A DNA stretch of 64,000 nt from an uncultured Gemmatimonadales bacterium (GCA_963793305.1 CAWBZV010000003.1:800001-864000); one strand, 5' to 3'. Positions 926-12,886 are shown, numbered from the stretch's first letter. Translations and numbers: made by a program. Notes: generated by a model from the sequence alone, not told the origin.

Positions 926-980
926 AGATCCAATGCCACAGGGGGTTAGCGAGATACCGCTGTGCGGTCCGTCGCGTGCT
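840..980 (+). promoter_or_regulatory. Putative sigma-54 promoter with upstream activator-site repeats
   Basis: GG-N10-GC at 966-979 (cGGtccgtcgcgtGCt); ATTTGCG at 840 and 849 and its complement CGCAAAT at 865 and 886. Confidence 0.45.
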
Positions 981-1018
981 TAAGAACGCCTCCGACTCTC
1001 GCGCCCGGAGGCGTGTTC

Positions 1019-4000
1019 GTGCTCACGAATTGTTGGCGGTTCGTTCTTGTTGTTGTCTGCGCGTTGCTCGTCGCACTCGCTGGTGGGGTTCAGACGGCGT
1101 CCGCTCAGGTCGTCCCGCACCCACCGCGTCCATTCATCTGCATGCCCGGCCAACCCGGGTGTCACACGTATCCCCCCTCGGCGAGCATCAGCCCGACCAC
1201 TGAGACGGTCTCGTCGCGGACGCTGGCGGTGACGGTGACGCTGTGTGACAGCGTCAGCCTCGGAGCCGATTCGGTCGTCTTCAACGGCACCAACAACACG
1301 AGCGCCTTCACGGTCACGAACGTGACCGGATCGGGCCAATGCGCCGTGGAGAAGAAGCTGACCGCGACGCTTCCGCCACTGAACCTCGGGGCGAACACGC
1401 TCGTCGCGTACGTCTACAATGACTTCAGTGGCAACCTGACGAGCTCCATCGCATCCGTCACGTATACATACAACCCACCGCCGAGCGTCAGCGTGACGCC
1501 GAAGGGCAGCTCGCTCTCGCTCCCGACCTCGGCCTCCGACTCCGTCACGTTCACCGTGACGAGTCTCGAGTCGGGATCCGACAGCGCCGCCTTCACGTGC
1601 TCGGCGCCCGGCATCACCACGAGCTGCACGGTGGTGGCCGGGAAGCGATTGGCGGGCGGCGCCAACGCGCCGATCGCCGTACACCTCAATCAGCCGGCGG
1701 CCGCGACGGGCACGGTCACCTTGACCGCGACGATGACGGGGACCCTGGGCTCCGACAATGGGACCATCAACCTCACGCTCATCGATCGCACCCAAGTCCT
1801 GCGGATCGTCGCCGGCGGAGGGATACAGCAGGTGTTGCCGAGTGCCGCCATCGTCGCGCCATTCACGGTGACGAACTACGGCAACCTGCAGGACACCGTC
1901 AACCTCAGTACCACGTGCCCGGGGTCGGCGTTGAGTGGCAGTTGCACGCCGTCGGTCACCTCCTTCACGCTGACTCCGGGGGCATCGCGTGCCGTCACGG
2001 TGAGCGTCGCGGCCGGCACCACGGTCGGTGCGACCGGAACGGTGGGGTTGGTCGGCGCACTCGCCAGTGGTGGCGTGCGCGACAGCGCGTACACCGACAT
2101 CACCATTCGCGCCGCCCGCTCACACGGCGTCGAGCTCGGCGCGGTGAACGACTTCTCGCAGCAGACGCCCGCCCTCTGCTACGCGCGGGCGATCGTGCCG
2201 CGCGCGGCGTACGAGTGTGGCAACCTCCGCATCGCCCATGCCCTGCCGGCCGTCCGGACCTACAACAAGGTCCGGGTGCCGACGCTGCTGTACAGTAGTC
2301 AGCTCGCGCACCCGCATCCCGTGATCAATGCGATCATCACCCTCGACGCGAGCCAGGGCACGCCCGACAGCGTCCTCGGGCAGCTGATGGATGGGAGTGG
2401 CAATACCCTCGGCCATGGCAAGTGGGCCGGCGCCTCATTCGCCAACGGCGCGTCGCGCGCGGTGAGCATCGGTTACAACGCGAGTGGCGTGACGACGAAC
2501 GAGTACAGCTGGAAGGTGCAAGCGCAGGCGTTCTATCCCGATACGATGCTCCCCTACGTCACGAACGAGTTCTATGCGCTCGTCAGCGCGCAGGCCTCGC
2601 ATCTCGGACACGGCTGGACCGTGGCCGGCGTCGAGTCCATGCACGTCTACTCGTGCGGGTGCTCGATGTTGTGGAATTCGGCGGATGGCAGTGCCGAGTT
2701 TTACTCGAACCAGAGCACGGGTTCGTCGTCGACGTTCGCGCCAACGTCGGGATTGCTGACGCGGCCCGACACGATGAAGACCGATCACTCGACCGGGGTG
2801 CTGCACTACATTCGCTACGCGCCGCACGGCGTGCAGGTGATCTTCGATTCCACGGGGCATCATCTCCAAACGCGCGACCGCCTCGGGCACGTGACCACCT
2901 TCACGTACGTCAATGGGACGGACGTCGCCACCATCACGGTGCCGGCGCCGGGCGCGACGCTAACCTATCAGTTCGTGTACGACGGCACGACGCACATGTT
3001 GGACTCGGTCATCGCGCCGTCCGTCGGGGGGGAGCCGACCCGCGCCACCAAGCTCACGATCAACAGCGCGGGCGATGTGACGGCGATCCGGGACCCGGAT
3101 GGGATGTCGGTCACGTTCAACTATCGCACGGGTGGCGACTCCGACGTCATCACGTCGCTCACGGATCGCCGTGGCACGTATACGGCCTTCACCTACGATG
3201 CCGCGCGGGAGCTGGCGACCGCAACGGTCGACTCGACGAGCGGTGGATTCAATCTGACGACGAGCTTCGCCGGCGCGAACGCCTCGACGCTCACCGCTGC
3301 GCTCAACCAGGATTCGGTCTCGATGCTCGTGAACGGGCCGCGGACCGATGTCAGCGATACGGCGCGGATCTGGACGAATCGCTTTGGCCAGCCGGTCCGG
3401 CTCCGCGATGCGCTCGGCTACGAGACCGACCTGACGATGGGCAATACGACGTACTTGGCGGAGGTGACCCGACTCCGCCACCCCAACGGCCAGGTGCTTG
3501 GCGCGGTCCCCGATCCACGTGGCAACCTACAGAGCGAGACCGACTCGAGCCTCGTCAGCGGTGGTCAGTACGCCACGACGGCCTATACGTACGATGGCAA
3601 GTTCGACTTCGTCACGAGCATCACACCCCCATTGCTCGACGCGACGACGTTCACGTACGACACGGTGAATGGAAATCGACTCACGGCGCGGAATGCGCTC
3701 GGCGACTCGACCACCATCAACTACTTCTACGGCAACAGCGACTCGTTGCTCTCATCATCCCAGCCTCCCCACACGGCCAAGGACTCGATCCAGTACGATG
3801 GCGTCTTCGGCAACGTCGTGGGCGAGATGACGCCGCTCGGGTATTGGACGCTGACCCTCCTCGACGGGTATGGTCGGGATTCGTTGGCCATCACGCCCCT
3901 TCCGGCAGCCGACAAATCGCACGACCCGACGGGCGCGGGCGCCGTACGCGATACGACGGAGACGTTGTACGACCCGCTCGATCGTCCCTACTTCACGCTG

Positions 4001-6574
4001 ACGATCGCGCCGACGTACAACGGCGTGGTGCGCCAGACATCGAGCGTGCTCACCGACTACGACGGGGAAGGCGCCGTTCTCTCGACGCAGATCCAGCCAT
4101 CGCCGGACCCCAACAACATTGAACTGATCACCACGTTCCACTTTTATGACCGCGTCGGGCGGCTGAGCTACACGCAACATCCAGACAATTCGAAGGACAG
4201 CACGTACTACGACGCCGCTGGGAACGTGGATACCATCTATACCCGGCGCGGATACAAGATCCCTCAGGCGTTCGATGCATTGAATCGCATCGTGAAGCGC
4301 ATCGTGCCCTCGGTGTTCTACCCCAAGGACTCGATCGGCATTCCGGCGTTGACGGAGCAGAAGAGCTTCTACCTCACACAGAACCCGCCGTACGGCAATC
4401 TCACGATTCCGGGCGACAGCGCGGCGTTTCGCTATGACGAAGTCAGCAATACCGTCGAGGCGGACAATGCCGATGCGCGGATCAGCCGTGTCTACGACGC
4501 CGCGGGCCGGTTGCTCACCGAGACACAGCGCGTCCGCACGCGTGATGGTCAGAACTTCAATACGCACATCTACACGGTGGGGTACGGCTACGATCGCGAC
4601 AGCCGACGCACACTGGTCGTGCATCCAAGCCAGCTGGCGGCGATCGTCAGCGGCCAGTCCCGCGATACGTCCATCTACGGGTACGACCTGGCATCGCACG
4701 TGAGTACTGTGCGGGACATTCTCGGCGGAACGTTCACCTATGGGTACTCGGCCCGTGGCGATCTCATATCGTTGGCATTCCCCGATGGCGCGACCGAGGA
4801 GCGATTCGGGACCGATGACGACGGGCGCTTGACGAACGATTCGATCGGCCCCCTCAGCGGGGCGGCGAATTCGCGGAAGACGGCGCTGACCTACGATGCG
4901 CGCGGCAAGATCCTGACGGGGGTCAACACCTTCGGCATCCAGGACAACGTATCGGCAACGTATTCCGCCATGGGACACGTCGTCGTGCACAATGCTTCAT
5001 TCATCTTTCCGGCGTACGACGGCAGTCCGCAGCAGAACGGCACGGATGACGAGACGTACACACTGGATCCCCTGGGGAATCAAGTCAGCTCGACCTCGAG
5101 CACCAATATCGCCGTCGGGACCATCTCTGATCCGACGACCAGCCTCGCGTTGGCGGGCTACAACAACCGCATTGGGGAGCAGACGGTGCGTCAGGGAGGG
5201 AGCGCCGGTGTCCATGGCTCAGCCGACGCGCTGTTATACGACGCGGAAGGCAACCTGTACGGGACCTATCAGACATCAATCGTGCAGGGCGACCCCGCGG
5301 TAGATCTCTTCTCGTACTATGGCGCGGACAATCGGCTCCGCATGGCGGACAATCGAACGGTCGCCAATGCGTTCGTCCAGACGCTGACGATTTCGAGCCG
5401 CGCGCTCGAGACCTATCGCTACGACGCGCTCGGCCGCCGGGTGTTCAAGCAAGCCGACGACTGGTGTCCGACCAACACGACGGTCTGGAACTACTGCCAT
5501 CGCGCCACGCTGCGCCGCTTTGTGTGGGACGGCGCGCAAGAGTTGGACGAAATTCAGACGCAGGATACCGCCGTCGTATCGATTGCCGAAGCCGACACCG
5601 GCGTCGTCAAGCTCGGCATCCAATGCAATGGCGTGTGCTCCGACAACAACAAATTCTTCGGTCGAGTGCTGTACACGACCGGATTGACGGTCGACCAGCC
5701 GTTGGCGGTGACGCGTGTGGACTATGCCGACTCGGCGACCGTCGTCAATGGCTTAGCCGGCACGCCGGTGCCGTACTATGTCCACCCGCCACTCACGTTC
5801 GTGCCGGTGTGGAACGCCTACGGCCGGTGGGACGCTGTTCTCGATTACGAGTGCGTGACGATGCCGGGCAGCACGCAGCCGCGCTGCGTCGACTCGCAGG
5901 TCGAACTCGGACTCAATCCATACGACAACCTGCACGTCAACGTCCTCAGTTATATGGGATCGATGTTGGAGGACAAGCGCGATGAGACTGGGACACGATA
6001 CCGGCGGGCTCGCACGTACAATCCGACCACCGGGCTGTTCACACAGGAAGATCCCCTCGGCCTCGCCGGCGGGCTCAACGCCTACGGCTTCGCGGAAAGC
6101 GACCCGGTTAATTATTCCGATCCTTTCGGGTTGTGTCCCTTCGGTCAGGTGGTGTGCAACCTCTTCAATAGTTACGCGAACTGGCGTGACGATCAGGAAA
6201 GTGAGTACAAGGAATTTCACGGCGGCGACCAGGTGGTCGCGCTCGAGGTCCCCGGCATATTTGCCGCTGCCAGCCCCGAAGGCATCGCGGAAGGACTCGG
6301 GGAGATCGGAGAGCAATTCGAAAACATCTCAAACGAACTCAAGACCTCGAATCACTTTCAAGCGGCTCGGATGGAGCAGACGGGCCGCCTGGAGACAGGT
6401 GCCGATCACGCGCATGAGCTCAAGGACTTCGCCAACGGCCTGCGCAACTCCGCGGTCAAACTGAAACGTATCTTGAGTAATCCCAAGCTCGAGGCTGCGG
6501 TTCGTAAAGATGCACAGGAGCTCCTCAGCAACGTCAGCATACTGCGCGACCGTATCATGGAGGCACTGAAGTGA
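1019..6574 (+). CDS. RHS/YD-repeat polymorphic toxin with signal peptide, Ig-like N-terminal domains and Ntox28-like C-terminal toxin
   Basis: Likely start GTG 1019 after GGAGG (1007-1011); hydrophobic leader ending ASA-Q; YD repeats; core RARTYNPTTGLFTQEDPLGLAGGLNAYGF..DPVNYSDPFGL; variable C-terminus. Confidence 0.92.
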   Translation: MLTNCWRFVLVVVCALLVALAGGVQTASAQVVPHPPRPFICMPGQPGCHTYPPSASISPTTETVSSRTLAVTVTLCDSVSLGADSVVFNGTNNTSAFTVTNVTGSGQCAVEKKLTATLPPLNLGANTLVAYVYNDFSGNLTSSIASVTYTYNPPPSVSVTPKGSSLSLPTSASDSVTFTVTSLESGSDSAAFTCSAPGITTSCTVVAGKRLAGGANAPIAVHLNQPAAATGTVTLTATMTGTLGSDNGTINLTLIDRTQVLRIVAGGGIQQVLPSAAIVAPFTVTNYGNLQDTVNLSTTCPGSALSGSCTPSVTSFTLTPGASRAVTVSVAAGTTVGATGTVGLVGALASGGVRDSAYTDITIRAARSHGVELGAVNDFSQQTPALCYARAIVPRAAYECGNLRIAHALPAVRTYNKVRVPTLLYSSQLAHPHPVINAIITLDASQGTPDSVLGQLMDGSGNTLGHGKWAGASFANGASRAVSIGYNASGVTTNEYSWKVQAQAFYPDTMLPYVTNEFYALVSAQASHLGHGWTVAGVESMHVYSCGCSMLWNSADGSAEFYSNQSTGSSSTFAPTSGLLTRPDTMKTDHSTGVLHYIRYAPHGVQVIFDSTGHHLQTRDRLGHVTTFTYVNGTDVATITVPAPGATLTYQFVYDGTTHMLDSVIAPSVGGEPTRATKLTINSAGDVTAIRDPDGMSVTFNYRTGGDSDVITSLTDRRGTYTAFTYDAARELATATVDSTSGGFNLTTSFAGANASTLTAALNQDSVSMLVNGPRTDVSDTARIWTNRFGQPVRLRDALGYETDLTMGNTTYLAEVTRLRHPNGQVLGAVPDPRGNLQSETDSSLVSGGQYATTAYTYDGKFDFVTSITPPLLDATTFTYDTVNGNRLTARNALGDSTTINYFYGNSDSLLSSSQPPHTAKDSIQYDGVFGNVVGEMTPLGYWTLTLLDGYGRDSLAITPLPAADKSHDPTGAGAVRDTTETLYDPLDRPYFTLTIAPTYNGVVRQTSSVLTDYDGEGAVLSTQIQPSPDPNNIELITTFHFYDRVGRLSYTQHPDNSKDSTYYDAAGNVDTIYTRRGYKIPQAFDALNRIVKRIVPSVFYPKDSIGIPALTEQKSFYLTQNPPYGNLTIPGDSAAFRYDEVSNTVEADNADARISRVYDAAGRLLTETQRVRTRDGQNFNTHIYTVGYGYDRDSRRTLVVHPSQLAAIVSGQSRDTSIYGYDLASHVSTVRDILGGTFTYGYSARGDLISLAFPDGATEERFGTDDDGRLTNDSIGPLSGAANSRKTALTYDARGKILTGVNTFGIQDNVSATYSAMGHVVVHNASFIFPAYDGSPQQNGTDDETYTLDPLGNQVSSTSSTNIAVGTISDPTTSLALAGYNNRIGEQTVRQGGSAGVHGSADALLYDAEGNLYGTYQTSIVQGDPAVDLFSYYGADNRLRMADNRTVANAFVQTLTISSRALETYRYDALGRRVFKQADDWCPTNTTVWNYCHRATLRRFVWDGAQELDEIQTQDTAVVSIAEADTGVVKLGIQCNGVCSDNNKFFGRVLYTTGLTVDQPLAVTRVDYADSATVVNGLAGTPVPYYVHPPLTFVPVWNAYGRWDAVLDYECVTMPGSTQPRCVDSQVELGLNPYDNLHVNVLSYMGSMLEDKRDETGTRYRRARTYNPTTGLFTQEDPLGLAGGLNAYGFAESDPVNYSDPFGLCPFGQVVCNLFNSYANWRDDQESEYKEFHGGDQVVALEVPGIFAAASPEGIAEGLGEIGEQFENISNELKTSNHFQAARMEQTGRLETGADHAHELKDFANGLRNSAVKLKRILSNPKLEAAVRKDAQELLSNVSILRDRIMEALK

Positions 6575-7035
6575 ACATAGACCTGTCGCCGTGGAGGGCA
6601 CCGGCGGAGCTCGTCGACGCGATTTGGGCTGCGCGACGCGAGCAGCGGAGGGACCTGCAACCGGCGATCGTGCAACTGCTCGATCACGATAACCCGACCG
6701 TTCGTGAAGAGGCGGTGTCGTTGCTTTTTGTCAAGTGGGCGGATCGCTCGCTTCGTGACCGGCTCATCGGCCTGATGCGATCCGACCCTGATTTCGGGGT
6801 ACGGGCGCGGGCAGCCGGGGCCCTTGGACTGACATCGGACGACCGGAGCCGGCGCCGCGACTGTGAAGTACTCCGGCAGATCGTACTCGATAGGGAAGAC
6901 GACCCGGTCGTCCGTAAGGCGTGTTATGAGGCACTACAAGGAATGATCCACGGCAAGGCAATGCTACTCGACGACGATGTCGATCTCGATGAGGATGTGG
7001 ATTTGGAATGGGTGAAGGCAGCCTGCGGTGACTGA
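6571..7035 (+). CDS. HEAT-repeat protein, probable cognate immunity protein
   Basis: GTGA overlap with RHS stop; three HEAT/PBS-like units (DNPTVREEAVSLL, DPDFGVRARAAGALG, EDDPVVRKACYEAL). Confidence 0.8.
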   Translation: MNIDLSPWRAPAELVDAIWAARREQRRDLQPAIVQLLDHDNPTVREEAVSLLFVKWADRSLRDRLIGLMRSDPDFGVRARAAGALGLTSDDRSRRRDCEVLRQIVLDREDDPVVRKACYEALQGMIHGKAMLLDDDVDLDEDVDLEWVKAACGD

Positions 7036-7091
7036 GTGGCGCACCGGGCGCTTCACGGTCTTACGTCCACCCTTGACGGGATAAGACGCAA

Positions 7092-7124
7092 GCCGCTAGT
7101 GCGGATTCGGCCCGCACTAGCGGC
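7092..7124. terminator. 13-bp perfect hairpin, probable bidirectional terminator
   Basis: GCCGCTAGTGCGG-N7-CCGCACTAGCGGC between the immunity gene (+) and the convergent methyltransferase remnant (-). Confidence 0.6.
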
Positions 7125-7137
7125 GCATTCATGGTAA

Positions 7138-7236
7138 TCATTCCGTCACGAGAAAATTGAACTGGCCGAGCCCCTGCGCGCGCGCGAAGTCTGCGGTGCT
7201 GCCGAGGCGGCCCGGTCCGCGCGACGTGATGTAAGG
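7138..7236 (-). pseudogene. Diverged duplicate of the 3' end of the FkbM methyltransferase gene
   Basis: Encodes YITSRGPGRLGSTADFARAQGLGQFNFLVTE*, versus YITSRGPVPLGSTSDFARAQELGQFNFLVTE* at 11972-12070. Confidence 0.85.
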
Positions 7237-7545
7237 AAATCGTTCCTGAAGGCATCCATCTCGTGAGCCTCGGTCGCCGTCACGGGCACATTGCGTGTCG
7301 AATCGACCGTCTCCGACGCGAGCAGTTGATCCAAACAGCCGCTCATCCTCGCGCGCTACGCGCGCCGTGCGCGCGATCGACGCCTCGACGTCCACCGGCT
7401 CGCTGGCGGCTTCGACGCTCAACCAGAGGCCGATCCTGGCCCACTCCGCCGCAATCGCGGCCACTGTGTCATTGACTCCGGCGTCGGGCGAATGCTTGGC
7501 AGCTGTCGTCCTCATCTCACTTTGCCTGCGTGCCAGGCCAGGCAT
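7237..7545 (-). pseudogene. Probable fragment of a hypothetical gene fused to the FkbM remnant
   Basis: Protein-like stretch IAAEWARIGLWLSVEAASEPVDVEASIARTARVAREDERLF that then loses coding character. Confidence 0.3.
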
Positions 7546-8225
7546 CGAGCGCCGTCACCGCGGGCGCGCTCGAAGATAAGTTGGATGCTGCAGGTACGGT
7601 GAATCGCCGAGCGCGAACTTACGATCCTCTCACGGGGCGGCTTACGCAGGAGGATCCGGCCGGGTTAGCTGGAGGGCTGAATGAGTACGGTTTTGCAGCC
7701 GGTGATCCGGTCAACTACAGTGATCCGTTCGGCCTGTGTCCACCATGCGACGGCAATGGCGTGTCGCCCCAGCGCCACCATACACCGACCGCTGACGAAG
7801 AGGCATTGCAGGGCCCCGGACTGCTTGATCCTGTCGCAATCGGGACTGGGTTCTTGGCGGGTCCGGTGGATGCTGCGATCACTGGGGCGATAGAACGCGC
7901 TGGTGCGGATGCTGCAGCCACATCGGCTGCCAAAGCGGGCACCAAGGTGTATCGGGTTTTCGGCGGGGAGGCGAAGCCCATGGGTCGCTATTGGACTCCC
8001 GTAAATCCCGCAGAAGTAGCAGGCTTCCGGGCTGCGGCGGGGCTGCCAGTCGAGAACACGGGCCGATTCGTGATCGAAGGGGTGCTGCAGGATGCTACCG
8101 GAGTGCAGGTAGGGCGTGCGGCGGCCGGTGCAGGCGGTAGGGGTGGGATCCCTGAGTTCTTGGTTCCCGCGCCGGCGAAACAGATTCAAATTATAAACGT
8201 GTCTGGCGCGAACCCACCATTCTGA
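7530..8225 (+). CDS. Orphan RHS module 1: truncated RHS core plus C-terminal toxin (possible ADP-ribosyltransferase/NADase fold)
   Basis: LEDKLDAAGTVNRRARTYDPLTGRLTQEDPAGLAGGLNEYGFAAGDPVNYSDPFGLCP parallels the main RHS core; tip has VYRVFGG..GRYWT..GGIPE; no convincing start codon. Confidence 0.85.
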   Translation: MPGQASSAVTAGALEDKLDAAGTVNRRARTYDPLTGRLTQEDPAGLAGGLNEYGFAAGDPVNYSDPFGLCPPCDGNGVSPQRHHTPTADEEALQGPGLLDPVAIGTGFLAGPVDAAITGAIERAGADAAATSAAKAGTKVYRVFGGEAKPMGRYWTPVNPAEVAGFRAAAGLPVENTGRFVIEGVLQDATGVQVGRAAAGAGGRGGIPEFLVPAPAKQIQIINVSGANPPF

Positions 8226-8232
8226 GGGGGGC

Positions 8233-8622
8233 ATGAGCGACAAGGGTCCAGATTTCTTCCTTGGCTCGAGCGACAGCCGCGGTGACTTTGCGCGCGCGCG
8301 TGCAGCATCGGCGCGCGCGCGCCTCGCCGGGCCGAACAACGTTCAGTATCTGTGGATTCGCGTTGAGCCGGCGATAATCGGACAGCCGTACGGCTTAGGC
8401 GGAGCGGATATTCACGACCTGATAATCGCTCCGCACTACGACGGCAGTACCTTGTTCCCGATCAAGGAGTTTCCCATGCCTGTTGTCGTTTACCGTGCAT
8501 TAAGCGATCGGGTGTTCGAGACACTTCGATTCGGTGAAGAAGACGTCTCTAACATCGCATGGGGAGAGCTGTACCGGACGCGCGACGCGGCGGTAGCCGC
8601 CTCGGGGGGCGAAACTCTCTGA
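8233..8622 (+). CDS. Putative immunity protein for orphan toxin 1
   Basis: 129 aa ORF 7 nt after the toxin stop, with GAGGGG RBS. Confidence 0.75.
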   Translation: MSDKGPDFFLGSSDSRGDFARARAASARARLAGPNNVQYLWIRVEPAIIGQPYGLGGADIHDLIIAPHYDGSTLFPIKEFPMPVVVYRALSDRVFETLRFGEEDVSNIAWGELYRTRDAAVAASGGETL

Positions 8623-8677
8623 CGCCACGCTACCTGCAACAAGAGGACAGCGTCTATCCATTTTGCTACGAGTGCGT

Positions 8678-9019
8678 ATGAAAGACCGGTCTTCCAACGA
8701 GCGTCGTGAGCGGCGCGTCGAGTTTCTGGGCGAGCAAGATGGTCCACCGGAGCGCGAACTCAAAGCGCTTCTGCAGAAAGAACTTCGTCGATTCCCTACG
8801 GTGCGGCGAGCCTACCTTGCGCGCGTCGGGTTTGCACCGGATGCTGCAGTATCCGTGGCGTTGTGCATTGCTCCGAGCTCAAAGAATGATCAGGCCATAG
8901 TTCAGACAGTCAGTCGTGTGTTTGGAGCGTACTTCGCTTCTGAGGCTCATCTCGACATCGTCTTTCTTGATGCCGAACAGGAAGAAGATCTGAGACGCGT
9001 CTGTGGTTCGTTCCTCTAA
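8678..9019 (+). CDS. SseB C-terminal-domain-like small protein, possible accessory immunity protein
   Basis: FLGEQDGPPERELK..VRRAYLARV..HLDIVFL pattern recalls standalone SseB_C proteins; ATG 8678. Confidence 0.6.
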   Translation: MKDRSSNERRERRVEFLGEQDGPPERELKALLQKELRRFPTVRRAYLARVGFAPDAAVSVALCIAPSSKNDQAIVQTVSRVFGAYFASEAHLDIVFLDAEQEEDLRRVCGSFL

Positions 9020-9042
9020 AAACCGTGGGAATCCGCTTCGCC

Positions 9043-9170
9043 CGCGGGTCGGGTGTTAATTCGGGCCTCGGTGGGCCGTCTGGATCGCCGGACCTCACAG
9101 TCGTCGCGCGGGTCGAGTGTAAATTCGGGCCTCATCGAGCCTTCCGGATCACTGGACCTCGCGCCTGTCA
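9043..9170. repeat. Two imperfect 64-bp tandem repeats, each an internal-loop hairpin (candidate target-binding loops)
   Basis: Units start at 9043 and 9107 (cgcgggtcgRgtgtWaattcgggcctc...tcYggatcRcYggacctc); outer stem shows a compensatory G-C to A-T change. Confidence 0.85.
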
Positions 9171-9590
9171 TCAGGGCCGCGCCGTGGACAGAGGGGTGGT
9201 CGTCCCACTGACTGAGGCTCGCAGCCTGGGTGTGTTTGCGGACCTCCCCCCGTACACCGCGTGTGACGACCGTGTGTCTCCTCGAGCGTCCACGGCGCAT
9301 TCCGGATCGCTAGGTCTCTCGTCTCACGCGGAATAGCTCGTGATCAGTTGTCAAACAGCGCCGAAGAGCTGCGTGCGTAGTGGGACCTCCACGCGACGAT
9401 CAAAACCTCGGTGCTCGGCGGGTCACGCCGGCACGACACATCTTCATAGACGCTTCGGATCCGAGGGAGACCTAGACGGTTGTATGACGACGGTCACCTG
9501 CGCGAACAGCCAGGGCCGCAAGGAACTTGAAGGTCGAAGCATCTCCCTCCACGCTCGGCTCACCACCCGTACCTTCGTCTTCTCCTCCGT
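9043..9590 (-). ncRNA. Putative bridge/seek RNA downstream of the IS110 recombinase
   Basis: No credible ORF; nested stems 9179-9189/9288-9298 (11 bp), 9198-9204/9265-9271 and 9310-9318/9467-9475; loop segments match target and donor junctions; exact ends unknown. Confidence 0.7.
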
Positions 9591-10858
9591 TCATGCCGCT
9601 CGATACGGCGACTCACGCTGGAGCACCTGCCACCGCCCGGCGTCGAACGGTTCTGCGGTCTGCATGATATGCAACAACATCGGGACGAGCTTCCGGGCGA
9701 TCGCACACACGGCGCTCACCTTGGATCCGCCGTTTCGCGCGACCAGCGCGACGTACTGCTCATGACACAATCCACCCGTCCGGCAGCATCGGCCCGCGAG
9801 CAGGAAGAGCTGGCGTCGGAGCGCCGGCCGCCCGCGCTTCGTCTGTCGGATCCGACTGCGGACGGACGTTCCGCTTTCCTTCCCCGCCAGGTTCATGCCG
9901 GCGAGCTTCAGCACCTGGCGCGGCGAGACGTAGCTCGCCGGCGTGCCGAGTTCGGCGACGAGGGTCGAGGCGCAGACGACGCTCACACCCGGCACCGTGG
10001 TTAAGGCGGCGACGGCCGTGATCTCCTGGGCGAGCTCCGTCAACTGAGCCTCGACCGCCCCGATGTGAAGCCGGACGATCGTCCACCGGGCGAGGAGACG
10101 CCGGATCTCCTGACGGCGGGCACCGCGATCGTCGACCACTCCGATCGTCAATGCCGCGGCCGTCAGGAACGCGTTGATCCGGTCTGGCGCGAAATGGTTG
10201 TGCGAGACCTTGCGGATGAGCGCTCGTACACGCATCGGTCGCTCGGCATCGAGCTCCGCCGGCGTCGACCAGTGCCGGAGCAGCGCGATCGGCGTGCAGT
10301 ACTTCACGTCGGTGAACGTGGCGGTGAACTCCGGCCAGACGACGTCGAGGACGCTCAAGAGTCGGTTCTTGAGTCGCGTCTCCTCGACGGCGAGCCGCTG
10401 GCGCTCGGTCGTCAGGGCCCGAAGGGCGATCGCGCGCGGCTCAAGAAGGGCGTAGCTGACGAACAGACCGTCGCTCACGAGCCGACAGATCAGGCTAGCG
10501 TCTTTCGCATCGTCCTTCCGTGGGCTGTTGTCTTCCATCTCCTTGAGCCGCTTCGTCAGAGCCGAGAGCACCGTGACCACGCGTAGCCGCGCCGGTGCAG
10601 ATCGGCGGCGAAGGTCTGCCCATGGTGGCCCGCGAACTCGATGCCCACGAGCATCCGTTCGCGGGGCACGTTGGGGAACAGTGCGGTGAGATGTGCGTCA
10701 GCAGCATCGAACCCGCCGCGACTCACCGGCACTGTAATGGCCTTGGTGCGACGGCTGTCCGGCCCGCGTGCAACGAGCATGTGAAAAGTCTTGCCGGTGT
10801 CGACACCCACATGGACGCAAAAGGTACGGGCGTACGCGAGCTTGTCGTCGGCGTGCAT
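9591..10858 (-). CDS. IS110-family transposase/recombinase, split by a single-base frameshift near 10581
   Basis: DEDD residues VGVDTGK, GIEFAG, KDDAKDA; C-terminal LTTVPGVS..AELG..LAGM..ESGTS with conserved Ser; adding one G joins ORFs 10556-10858 and 9591-10580 as GYAVVTV. Confidence 0.92.
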
Positions 10859-11062
10859 GGCGCGGGCGAGTAGAGTGTGGTAGCGTCAGCCGGGGGAGGC
10901 CAGACTCTCTCACCCGTGAGAATGTTGCCGCTACACTAATGCACGCTGCATACCACACCTCGCGATCACCAGCGCTCGATCAATGATCGACGGCAAAACA
11001 AAACCCAATGTCGGTGTGCAGCGCTCTATAGTGGCTGCACACTAACATCGGGAGATAGATGT

Positions 11063-11599
11063 GTAAATTACTCGGACCCATTCGGTCTGAGCCCATGCCC
11101 TCCAGACAACGACTGCGGCATCAGCGCGAGCGACGCACTCGCGGCTCTCACGGGCGCGGGTCGGCTCCTTCAGCCCGCGCAAGGACCTCTCGAAGTGGCT
11201 GGTACGATTGCGGTCGCACCGCTGGCCGGGGGAGTGGGGGCAGCCGAGGAGATCAGCGGTGCCGTGATTGCGCTCGGACAGACGCTGAGGTCCGGAGCCG
11301 GTAGCGGGGTTCTGACAGCGGCGGGAGTAGCGGGACGAGTGGCGTCTGCGACCGGCGGCGCCGTTTCCCAGCTAGCCAAGTCGGAAGGTTTCAAAGTCAC
11401 GGTGGACGCCGGGCGAGCTATTGTCGCTAGAATTAAGTCTACTGGCGACATCCGTGTGGGTATCGACGGCATCGGCTCACTGACACGCGAGGGCGTAGTG
11501 TCCGCGAATCGAGCGCTCACCCATCTGAAGAACCTGTCGAGCCAAGAGATAATTGGTCTCATCAACAAGGCTCGTGAATTGCTCGCAGCGCCACGCTAA
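11063..11599 (+). pseudogene. Orphan RHS module 2: displaced C-terminal toxin beginning exactly at VNYSDPFGL
   Basis: In frame upstream of ORF 11195: GTA AAT TAC TCG GAC CCA TTC GGT CTG = VNYSDPFGL, with no RHS core sequence before it. Confidence 0.85.
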
Positions 11600-11623
11600 C
11601 CAACCTCTGACGCCTTATCTCTC

Positions 11624-11959
11624 ATGGATCGCGCCGTCCTGCCGCAGGCACTCAATGGTGGTTACATCGAGGAGTACGAGTTCGACCTGCGTCGGAATCT
11701 ATTCTCCATGCGAGTCCATGTTCTCGACAACGATCTGCTGTCCAGCTATAACGTGCGGTTCGAGAAGTTGAGTCAGTTCGCGATGGATAGTGAGAGCCTG
11801 GGTGACAAAGAGCGACTCGAACTGACCGAGATCTGGATCGACTCGACTCCGGAGTCGTCCAGTACCGAGGAGTGGAGTATTACGATAAGCATGTGGGACA
11901 TTACTCACATTCGCCTGCGGTGCGCCATCATCGTGATCGATGGCGCACCGCTGCGCTGA
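11624..11959 (+). CDS. Putative immunity protein for orphan toxin 2
   Basis: Acidic 111 aa ORF directly after the toxin tip; lower GC than flanking housekeeping genes. Confidence 0.7.
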   Translation: MDRAVLPQALNGGYIEEYEFDLRRNLFSMRVHVLDNDLLSSYNVRFEKLSQFAMDSESLGDKERLELTEIWIDSTPESSSTEEWSITISMWDITHIRLRCAIIVIDGAPLR

Positions 11960-11971
11960 CGACGAGAGACA

Positions 11972-12886
11972 TCACTCTGTCACCAAGAAATTGAACTGCC
12001 CGAGCTCCTGCGCGCGCGCGAAGTCGGAGGTGCTCCCGAGGGGGACCGGCCCGCGCGACGTGATGTAGGAGACGTTGAGGCCGAGGCTGAGGACGCGGTC
12101 GATGATGTGGCCCTCGTTGATCGCCCGCCCGAGAAACTCCATGATCAGCGTCGGCCGCCCACGCGGGCGACGCAGCGTGCGCTCGAATCCATCGAGCAAT
12201 CGCATCTCGTGCCCTTCGACGTCGATCTTGAGCAACGCCGTCTCCGGCGCGATGCCCTCGCGCTCGAACACCTCGTCGAGCGAGACGACCGGCACGTCGA
12301 ATCGCTCGCGCAGGTCGCCCAATGCGGTGCGCCCCGACTCTAGCGTGCTTTCCTGATCGTTCTCGCGAACGTAGAACGTCATCGTGCCCGGCTCGGCGCT
12401 GACGCCCGCGTGGCGCACCTCGACGCGCGGGCTCCAGCCGTTGCGCTCGACGTTCCGTTCGATGAGAGACGCGAGATGGGGCGTTGGCTCGTACGCGATG
12501 ACGCGCGCATGAGGTGCGTGGCTCGCGGCGAGATAGGTGAACACGCCGACGTTGGCGCCAATGTCGAAGATGGTCGTCGCCTCGCGCGCGAGCGATGTGA
12601 AGAGACGAATGGTCGACCAGTCGGCATACTGCTGGAGCGGCTGGACGAGCAGGCTGCGGCAACTCGGCAGCGACAGGTCCAACTCTAATGTGACCACGGA
12701 CGCCCCGAGGTCGATCGACGCGACCGTCGTGCGGTGTGCCGAGCGACAGACGAGCTCTTCGACCGCGCGAGACGCGGAGTTGCCGCCGAGGATGCGGCGT
12801 TGCCCCAAGCGGGCCACCAGCGCGATCAACGGCGGACCGAGTACGGTCGACCCAGTGCGGCGCAACGTGCGCGCGACGACCGACAT
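11972..12886 (-). CDS. FkbM family SAM-dependent methyltransferase
   Basis: IFDIGANVGVFT, YEPTP, LLKIDVEGHE motifs; likely start ATG 12886. Confidence 0.9.
   Translation of the reverse strand: MSVVARTLRRTGSTVLGPPLIALVARLGQRRILGGNSASRAVEELVCRSAHRTTVASIDLGASVVTLELDLSLPSCRSLLVQPLQQYADWSTIRLFTSLAREATTIFDIGANVGVFTYLAASHAPHARVIAYEPTPHLASLIERNVERNGWSPRVEVRHAGVSAEPGTMTFYVRENDQESTLESGRTALGDLRERFDVPVVSLDEVFEREGIAPETALLKIDVEGHEMRLLDGFERTLRRPRGRPTLIMEFLGRAINEGHIIDRVLSLGLNVSYITSRGPVPLGSTSDFARAQELGQFNFLVTE

Follow-up and report, generated by a model that had tools for sequence, protein, structure and literature searches.

An IS110-type element with an Rhs toxin tip as probable cargo in an uncultured Gemmatimonadales bacterium, and its relatives in genomes and metagenomes

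Transposable elements of the IS110 family are directed by guide RNAs, known as bridge RNAs and seekRNAs, and the recombinase of IS621 acts around a core of 2 nucleotides (nt). Bridge recombinases of the IS621/IS110 type were reportedly described together with their bridge RNA by Durrant et al. in 2024. Here we analyze an insertion sequence (IS) of this family lodged among Rhs genes in a 64,000-nt stretch of DNA from an uncultured Gemmatimonadales bacterium (GCA_963793305.1 CAWBZV010000003.1:800001-864000; hereafter the window, with positions counted from its first letter). A sequence-only reading of the window had proposed that a recombinase of this type inserts a toxin and immunity cassette in frame into Rhs genes under the guidance of an RNA. 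The observation behind that proposal is confirmed by our analysis, and its interpretation is supported with corrections: the interval 7712-11062 is, in our judgment, very probably one member of a family of IS110-type elements in Gemmatimonadales that are guided by bridge RNA and have an Rhs toxin tip, probably with its immunity gene, built in as cargo. It is this family, and not its decayed member in the window, that constitutes the finding. The genes and features of the locus are the following.

962..6574, plus strand: main Rhs gene, 1870 amino acids (aa), with its own tip (tip 0); RHS_repeat match with E 7e-9, Rhs_assc_core match ending at residue 1724
6571..7035, plus strand: HEAT-repeat open reading frame (ORF); Pfam HEAT_2, E 2e-15
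7530..7711, plus strand: orphan Rhs core remnant ending ...GDPV, with the left half of the target (LT) and the core GT at 7710-7711
7712..8225, plus strand: cargo tip 1, a candidate toxin, whose first bases CAACTAC are the far end of the element (right donor arm, RD)
8233..8622, plus strand: 129-aa cargo ORF immediately following tip 1, which its position makes a candidate immunity gene
8663..9019, plus strand: 118-aa ORF, second cargo gene; weak SseB_C match below the cut-off (E 2e-4, 21.8 bits against 22.5 bits)
9020..9590: non-coding stretch of 571 nt
9046..9100, minus strand: predicted target-binding hairpin 1, loops GTGTTAATT (9053-9061) and CTGGATCGC (9080-9088)
9107..9165, minus strand: predicted target-binding hairpin 2, loops GTGTAAATT (9117-9125) and CCGGATCAC (9144-9152)
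9176..9330, minus strand: two more hairpins of similar general shape with uncertain targets, one with CCGGATC at 9302
9336..9590, minus strand: conserved structured non-coding RNA core including the donor-binding loop, from alignment structure and guide covariation
9591..10858, minus strand: IS110-family transposase (Pfam), broken by one frameshift between 10559 and 10580
10859..11062, minus strand: 5' non-coding region of 204 nt with the left donor arm (LD), ...GATAGATGT, ending at 11062
11063..11599, plus strand: core GT (11063-11064) and displaced orphan tip 2, which starts exactly V-NYSDPFGL
11624..11959, plus strand: 111-aa ORF after tip 2, candidate immunity gene of the displaced tip by its position; weak YxiG-like match (E 0.004) below the cut-off

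Both junctions with their shared GT, as given by the sequence-only reading, can be read directly in the sequence. The left junction is GGTGATCCG-GT-CAACTAC, with the core GT at 7710-7711, the right junction is GATAGATGT-GT-AAATTACTCGGACCCATTCGGTCTG, with the core GT at 11063-11064, and the interval is hence bounded by GT at both ends. Joining the flanks at the shared GT yields GDPVNYSDPFGL, in codons GGT GAT CCG GTA AAT TAC TCG GAC CCA TTC GGT CTG, so that deletion of the interval restores a site in which the core remnant is rejoined to tip 2, just as proposed. An independently assembled contig (run X1, 3763 nt) covers 7343-11105 and includes both junctions. The contents that had been assigned to the interval, namely tip 1, two small ORFs, a non-coding region and an IS110 transposase, are borne out by ORF prediction and Pfam. 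The surroundings have the repeats, the core ending at DPxGL and the variable tip of an Rhs locus. TIGR03696 is matched up to its last position in both the main Rhs gene and the core remnant, and the same motif precedes three different tips in the window. The remnant is short, with positions 25-76 of the 76 of Rhs_assc_core matching residues 19-69 of the ORF at 7530-8222, and the frame upstream of the tip-1 joint is open for 82 aa only. No Rhs core lies upstream of orphan tip 2, homologues of which sit on longer ORFs in two other genomes (G137, 57% identity, in a 376-aa frame; G112, in a 1585-aa frame).

The transposase matches Pfam DEDD_Tnp_IS110 (E 3e-11) and Transposase_20 (E 1e-15). The DEDD RuvC-like N-terminal domain and the C-terminal Tnp domain with the catalytic Ser in its SG motif, which define the IS110 family, are found here, in the window in a frameshifted gene. 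An intact relative matches NF033542 ("IS110 family RNA-guided transposase") with a score of 160.8 bits, above the cut-off of 140 bits, and IS621 (8wt6) with E 2e-15 in an alignment that spans the SG motif (the ...SGSSVRG region). A contig of run X2 covers 10305-10622 identically, frameshift included, which means that an error in this one assembly cannot account for the frameshift; in relatives the transposase frame runs uninterrupted for 441-486 aa. No second copy of the IS was found in the genome of the window, and because only one copy is present there the ends of the element could not be set within its own genome. The window copy is a fossil: it is frameshifted, it is the sole copy of its genome and it sits in an orphan core remnant. 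With a single copy and a frameshifted transposase, the case therefore rests on relatives.

Homologous transposases (33-60% identity) were found in 14 of 301 sampled genomes of the order (G000 counted), and no further genomes came from a sample of the phylum, in which 6 of 401 had hits at E 1e-60 and belonged without exception to two families. A further 77 loci were retrieved from metagenomes with an alignment of nine intact transposases. A tip ORF (x-x-x-DPFGL) reading toward the IS lies 1265-1873 nt beyond the transposase stop in all 17 assessable genome copies, the window counted and one locus with a flank of only 818 nt (L042) left out. Metagenome loci were considered assessable for cargo if they extended at least 2200 nt beyond the transposase stop or if the motif was found, and 43 of the 45 such loci have a cargo tip at 1100-2200 nt beyond the stop. 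The expectation that homologues of the recombinase would be flanked by tips with varied cargo, which had been put forward as open to refutation, is thus upheld in both sets. The opposite, transposase-side end keeps the motif ...ATAGATGT or a one-base variant of it across relatives. It abuts a coreless tip in the window and at L031, L035 (twice), L038 and L044, and in 46 of 65 assessable metagenome loci another tip lies within 520 nt of it. Read in the direction of the tip, the layout of the element is tip, small ORF or ORFs, target hairpins, donor loop, antisense transposase and the end ...ATAGATGT. The units also occur as arrays of alternating tip and IS, e.g. in G140 and G137.

The DNA to the left of the tip start in the 17 genome copies is an Rhs core ending ...DP(V) in eight, the end of another IS110-type element in three and a repeat resembling repetitive extragenic palindromic (REP) sequences in five, with one (L038) left unclassed at a contig end. 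Among 43 metagenome left junctions, 29 are Rhs cores, six are other IS110-type ends and eight are REP-like or other (seven of these eight being REP-like by eye). Insertion is accordingly not confined to the Rhs genes named in the sequence-only reading, since the family also enters REP-like repeats. The in-frame exchange of tips in Rhs genes, on the other hand, holds for relatives and fails for the window, with its 82-aa remnant. In 12 loci of the relatives, corresponding to seven distinct places (L053; L054/57; L072/115; L095; L101; L109/110; L121-123), an ORF of more than 1000 aa lies upstream and continues in frame into the cargo tip; the longest such ORF measures at least 2185 aa and runs off its locus. 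Because these seven places present the fusion, then the IS and then a displaced tip, in-frame tip replacement in a full-length Rhs gene is actually observed.

The ends of the element are best defined in genome G213, which holds four copies of a 1.85-kb IS. Three of them share the same unit of tip and IS, at 95.5-97.7% identity and on two contigs, and the fourth combines the same IS (96.9%) with a different tip. All four lie within a REP-like repeat of about 140 nt that is present in at least 32 copies in 53 kb. Among the 32 repeats listed, 28 are unoccupied, and most end ...GCG-CT-TGTTAG or ...ACG-CT-AGTTAG; occupied repeats read ...GACGCG-CT-CATGTACGCGGATCC on the left and ...ATAGATGT-CT-AGTTAG on the right. 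Because the unoccupied repeats fix both ends at the CT core, the G213 unit begins at the bases for (L)MYADPFGL and ends with the IS. These target sites confirm that the element has two ends at a core dinucleotide, which is CT there, and by this comparison of sequences the tip in G213 lies inside the element, with no flanking Rhs core homology. REP-like landing sites comprise L033, L034 and L045 (G213) and also L043, L056, L081, L085, L087, L112 and L117. The end of the REP-like repeat (...AACGACGCG-CT-) resembles an Rhs core end ...NDAL. Across the 53 elements with both junctions, the core dinucleotides are identical in 21 and differ at the first base in 32 (left/right, 24 GT/CT, 3 AT/CT, 3 CT/GT and 2 GC/CT), with T as second base on both sides in 51.

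The restored site of the window is matched 15/15 by two segments of one hairpin, in keeping with the sequence-only reading. Hairpin 2 (9107-9165) fits the right half of the target (RT) at 7/7 positions and LT at 9/9, which amounts to 15 contiguous target bases. Folded on the transposase strand (-26.4 kcal/mol, z -1.9; z -2.85 on the plus strand), it forms an outer stem and an inner stem-loop with an 8+8-nt internal loop between them, in which both segments lie, and its predicted shape is that of a bridge-RNA binding loop. Hairpin 1 is a tandem copy of hairpin 2 with the same fold and other loops. Comparing it (9046-9100) with the core/tip joint of the main Rhs gene (6098-6116; AGCGACCCG-GT-TAATTAT, GT at 6107-6108) gives a fit of 7/7 to RT and of 7/9 to LT, both mismatches being transitions. 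Because of this fit the element may once have been able to enter the main gene too, and we regard the joint of that gene as context and a possible second target. Single-sequence folds are not significant for hairpin 1 (z -1.38, weak), for the two hairpins at 9176-9330 (z -0.64 and -0.97) or for the donor-loop stretch (z -1.15), and the claim of structure therefore rests on the alignment of relatives described below.

Homologous hairpins of relatives match the relatives' own sites. Two elements, L031 and L039, have two hairpins in common, and each is inserted at a site fitting a different one. G213 and G137 each have a loop that fits the repeat beside another that fits an Rhs joint; in G213 the second of these fits the Rhs joint found in G137. 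Exact matches of at least 9 nt between an element's own right junction and its own non-coding region were found in 16 of 66 elements, as compared with 98 of 3140 control comparisons between the non-coding regions of elements and the junctions of unrelated ones. A contig of run X4, from the metagenome of another study, runs from 9098 back to 9044 with 10 other letters between, which constitutes an extra hairpin unit; the number of tandem guide hairpins therefore varies between strains.

Next to the transposase stop, some 250 nt can be aligned across 14 diverse elements. The consensus structure of these 14 sequences has 30 pairs, 17 of them with compensatory changes, and an internal loop that holds two guide strands. 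A target loop and a donor loop with two guide strands each, as in IS110 guide RNAs, are present in the sequence, the RNA itself being predicted. The LD guide, the complement of 9435-9443, reads in the same sense as the transposase-side end, and the GACACATCT at these window positions is antisense to AGATGT-GT-C (9/9). The guide follows the states of the element end across relatives, with AGATGT, AGAGGT, AGGTGT and AGACGT each paired with a matching guide. The RD guide is more likely to be the complement of 9399-9405 (RNA UUUUGAU), antisense to the second core base and the first bases of the tip cassette, than that of 9349-9353. The block GTCAA at 9349-9353 was considered as the variable RD guide and rejected, for it is the same in CAC-, CAT- and CT-core elements. 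The earlier claim that two segments match the predicted circle junction is thus retained for 9435-9443 and abandoned for 9349-9353.

With guides extracted from a hidden Markov model alignment of all elements (a fuzzy regular expression was dropped after returning wrong blocks in many loci), the RD guide triplet and the three bases that open the tip agree in 56 of 59 elements (CAA 11, CAC 33, CAT 10, GAA 2), a count that, like the others for covariation, overstates the number of independent events because the elements are kin. After removal of identical tips the fit is 45 of 48, and none of 10000 label permutations reached that value. The triplet of tip 1 in the window, CAA, is among those matched by the covarying guide. 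The fit extends to elements inserted in repeats, so the tip start there cannot be a joint of the host's Rhs gene. Covariation of guide with target and of guide with donor, both suggested as checks by the sequence-only reading, is therefore found in relatives. An Rfam scan of 7000-12500 with E up to 1 returned no family and only two chance-level matches (sodF sRNA and flavivirus xrRNA).

The cargo typically consists of a tip of 150-180 aa followed at once by an ORF of 70-240 aa. From 132 listed ORFs, 92 were searched against Pfam (45 cargo tips, 44 following ORFs and 3 other ORFs of the window). Families were obtained for six of the 45 tips (DUF4329, Peptidase_M23, Tlde1, eCIS_core and, twice, DUF4951, one of them below the cut-off) and for three of the 44 following ORFs (Imm-NTF2-2, DUF7674 and the window's weak SseB_C). 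The position of the window ORF 8233-8622 is occupied by Imm-NTF2-2 in L098, where the pair is DUF4329 and Imm-NTF2-2. The nameable families are typical of polymorphic toxin tips or immunity proteins, and the cargo as compared across elements is diverse. Since most cargo ORFs have no Pfam family, the terms toxin and immunity rest mostly on position, and the cargo genes of the window are candidates for these roles on that basis. Tip 1, tip 2 and ORF 8233-8622 all lack a Pfam family. In protein searches of the 301 genomes of the order, tip 1 had one distant homologue, in one genome, and tip 2 had distant homologues only, in two genomes; these searches revealed no uninterrupted version of the window locus.

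Sequence comparison thus shows a junction anatomy of the form LT-core-RD...LD-core-RT, in which RD is the tip start, together with unoccupied sites, guide covariation, target loops that fit the sites in many elements and, in relatives, in-frame fusions. By analogy with IS621-type elements, we infer that the element would leave as a circle with the junction LD-core-RD, that the loops of an RNA, presumably expressed from the transposase strand, would pair with donor and target, and that strands would be exchanged at the core. RD consists of the first tip bases, C-A-N, which supply the third base of the Val codon and the Asn, Thr or Met codon of DPV-NYxDPFGL. The target loops would read both halves of an Rhs core/tip joint spelled in other synonymous codons or, in some relatives, the end of a REP-like repeat. 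Exchange at the core dinucleotide would then join the resident ...GDPV in frame to an incoming NYxDPFGL tip and leave the resident tip and its immunity gene downstream as an orphan, and repeated rounds would generate the arrays of tip and IS units. Cargo could be exchanged by half-match recombination between the right junctions of tandem elements or with any upstream joint spelled T-CA(N), and the ORFs that travel with the tips would presumably confer immunity. On balance we lean toward seeing in this family a natural RNA-programmed system of in-frame gene fusion, whose arrays of target loops address several synonymous spellings and a neutral REP-like site, and which may represent the missing enzymatic route for the C-terminal displacement and horizontal spread of Rhs tips, at least in Gemmatimonadales.

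Several results weigh against these interpretations. The transposase is frameshifted in two runs and present as a single genomic copy, and the insertion is in an orphan core remnant rather than in the main Rhs gene. Nothing in the sequencing runs points to activity: neither a circle-junction nor an empty-site joint occurs in the contigs of four runs (X1-X4), and contigs cannot show rare circles. No Pfam family is assigned to 39 of the 45 cargo tips and 41 of the 44 downstream ORFs. The RD guide pairs over only about 5 nt and misfits in three of the 59 elements (L040, L059 and L077). There are about four guide states, and the fit stands for a handful of independent changes instead of 56. Target-loop matches that are exact over at least 9 nt are limited to the 16 of 66 elements noted above, and the G140 copies match the left half at 9/9 and RT poorly, over 6-7 nt. 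Two loci with flanks of more than 4.9 kb (L105 and L107) have no tip within 2.2 kb of the transposase stop and may be cargo-less or diverged forms. The first-base core mismatch in 32 of 53 elements, finally, is not predicted by strictly conservative exchange at an identical core.

The locus could also be explained by an IS that is merely a passenger: tips would move by RecA-type homologous recombination through core homology, as in classical C-terminal displacement, and an IS110 element favouring the DPV-NY joint would sit behind them. Tip 1 of the window is indeed preceded by a core remnant, which is also usual for orphan modules, yet units of tip and IS lie in REP-like repeats without Rhs core homology (the four G213 copies, L043 and some metagenome loci), with precise junctions in G213, where unoccupied copies allow comparison. 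The donor guide moreover covaries with the first bases of the tip, and no LT-like sequence is found beside the conserved part of the IS, so that we regard this explanation as quite improbable. It seems still harder to maintain, and highly improbable, that an ordinary IS110 without cargo landed where orphan tip 2 begins, with tip 1 as a preceding orphan cassette and the left half of the target lost later. The IS copies of G140 (83-99% identity) do have only about 2.0 kb in common, with a 98.7% pair sharing 55 nt more, and this sharing looks like that of an IS ending at the hairpins. The same loss would nevertheless be needed in all 17 genome copies and 43 metagenome loci, it cannot produce the G213 junctions, in which the left half of the repeat abuts the tip start, and it leaves the covariation of the RD guide unexplained.

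An explanation that accepts the element as real and treats the in-frame fusion as a by-product is likewise unlikely. According to it, the true home of the family would be the REP-like repeat, with identical CT cores, and Rhs joints would be off-targets that resemble the element's own end. It is true that the 12 CT/CT cases all have the same core at their two junctions, that Rhs-inserted elements of the CT type mostly combine a left GT with a right CT (24 of 53), and that a recent preprint reports half-match off-target insertion for IS621 (bioRxiv 10.64898/2026.08.31.748434). Against this, both junctions of GT-type elements, the window included, carry GT, their loops fit Rhs joints 15/15, and the element's own end encodes the Rhs motif even in copies inserted in repeats. 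Rhs cores make up 29 of 43 left junctions, and G213 and G137 hold an Rhs-joint loop beside the repeat loop. The reading of the family as tip-bearing, RNA-guided elements that enter both kinds of site is the one we retain.

Known machinery, the IS110 recombinase and its bridge RNA, is in a new role here and has a new kind of end. Among comparable systems, integrons capture promoter-less cassettes as circles at a fixed site and stack them in arrays, using a tyrosine integrase and attC/attI sites, without in-frame fusions and with a recombinase that does not travel with the cassette. An integron was rejected for the present locus, where the sole recombinase of the unit is of the IS110 type and no tyrosine integrase is found. 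As in IS621, there is a DEDD and Tnp recombinase, a donor loop and target loops with two strands each that read opposite DNA strands, and a 2-nt core. Unlike IS621, however, the RNA lies downstream of the transposase, the target loops number from one to several in tandem, the transposase is larger (417-437 aa against 328) and the right donor arm lies within coding sequence, i.e. in the gene fragment to be fused.

In the seekRNA elements (IS1111/IS110) of Siddiquee et al. 2024, the guide derives from a long non-coding region, and some members of the IS110 type have this region downstream of tnp (PMC11187229). The elements described here share this downstream position and differ in targeting a protein-coding motif and in carrying natural cargo, cargo being engineered in that work. 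Expanded, cargo-bearing IS110 loci larger than a minimal IS have been described by Hu et al. 2026, with cargo that is mostly plasmid-derived DNA and resistance genes gained progressively (bioRxiv 10.64898/2026.08.14.744561). Common to those loci and the present family are tandem non-coding repeat units beside the transposase, one-sided (half-match) boundaries and repeated insertion into occupied loci. In the window, likewise, cargo lies between the junctions and tandem hairpin units occupy 9046-9165, with a different copy number in run X4. In the present family, by contrast, the cassette is small and fixed, its opening codons form the site of recombination, and it is fused in frame. Half-match, or one-sided, events of IS110 elements appear in two preprints (bioRxiv 10.64898/2026.08.31.748434 and 10.64898/2026.08.14.744561). 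The words toxin, rhs and polymorphic are absent from the text of Hu et al. (bioRxiv 10.64898/2026.08.14.744561), and a toxin case in its supplements is possible. ISPpu9, another IS110 member, targets REP sequences, and its circles contain the transposase alone, the transposase with an adjacent module, or the module alone (PMC12288879). The use of REP sequences as targets is shared with the present family; the module there is a small RNA gene, unlike a protein-coding cassette fused to a host gene.

For Rhs genes, Jackson et al. 2009 described new tips that join the core at a conserved joint and push old tips downstream, and postulated a circular, tip-bearing intermediate for which no recombinase was known (PMC2935791). 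The joining of tips at the conserved joint and the displacement of old ones are found here as well, and the difference is that a dedicated RNA-guided recombinase would travel with the tip. The literature search found no paper joining IS110, Rhs and bridge RNA; the papers listed for IS110 with Rhs (20 of 23) and for IS110 with polymorphic toxin (10) were genome surveys by title, one of which notes only transposases near toxins. The suggestion that the mechanism had not been described therefore needs qualification as regards cargo-bearing IS110 elements, for which there is the precedent of a 2026 preprint, and stands as regards the link between IS110 and Rhs. The family provides a candidate enzyme for the change of Rhs warheads, a bridge-RNA recombinase that would travel with the tip and insert it in frame. 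With a donor end inside an ORF, the product of transposition would be a new fusion protein, which is not described for IS110 in the texts searched. For work on bridge recombinases, it points to natural multi-loop guide RNAs and to tolerance at the first core base, and natural intact homologues together with short target sites would allow the mechanism to be tested directly.

Some observations concern the neighbourhood and the wider set of elements. From its position only, the HEAT-repeat ORF at 6571-7035 is likely to confer immunity to tip 0. Two other long Rhs ORFs of the window genome (C3:171377 and C5:1481952) have 1675 and 720 aa upstream of the joint, which is spelled GT-CAACTAC in both; the donor end of the element is spelled in this way too, whereas its target loops are not. 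In the G140 pair of 98.7% identity, one copy (the 8196 side of L036) abuts about 20 nt of tip-like sequence followed by unrelated DNA, a flank that could represent either a decayed tip or a short target mimic. A second, distant IS110 type (33-37% identity), whose end reads ...ATAGGGGT, is likewise found next to tip starts, and there are arrays in which the two types alternate (L036 11410-12573, L037 1316-2530, L044 10649-11845 and L077), and the habit of abutting tips may be older than this clade.

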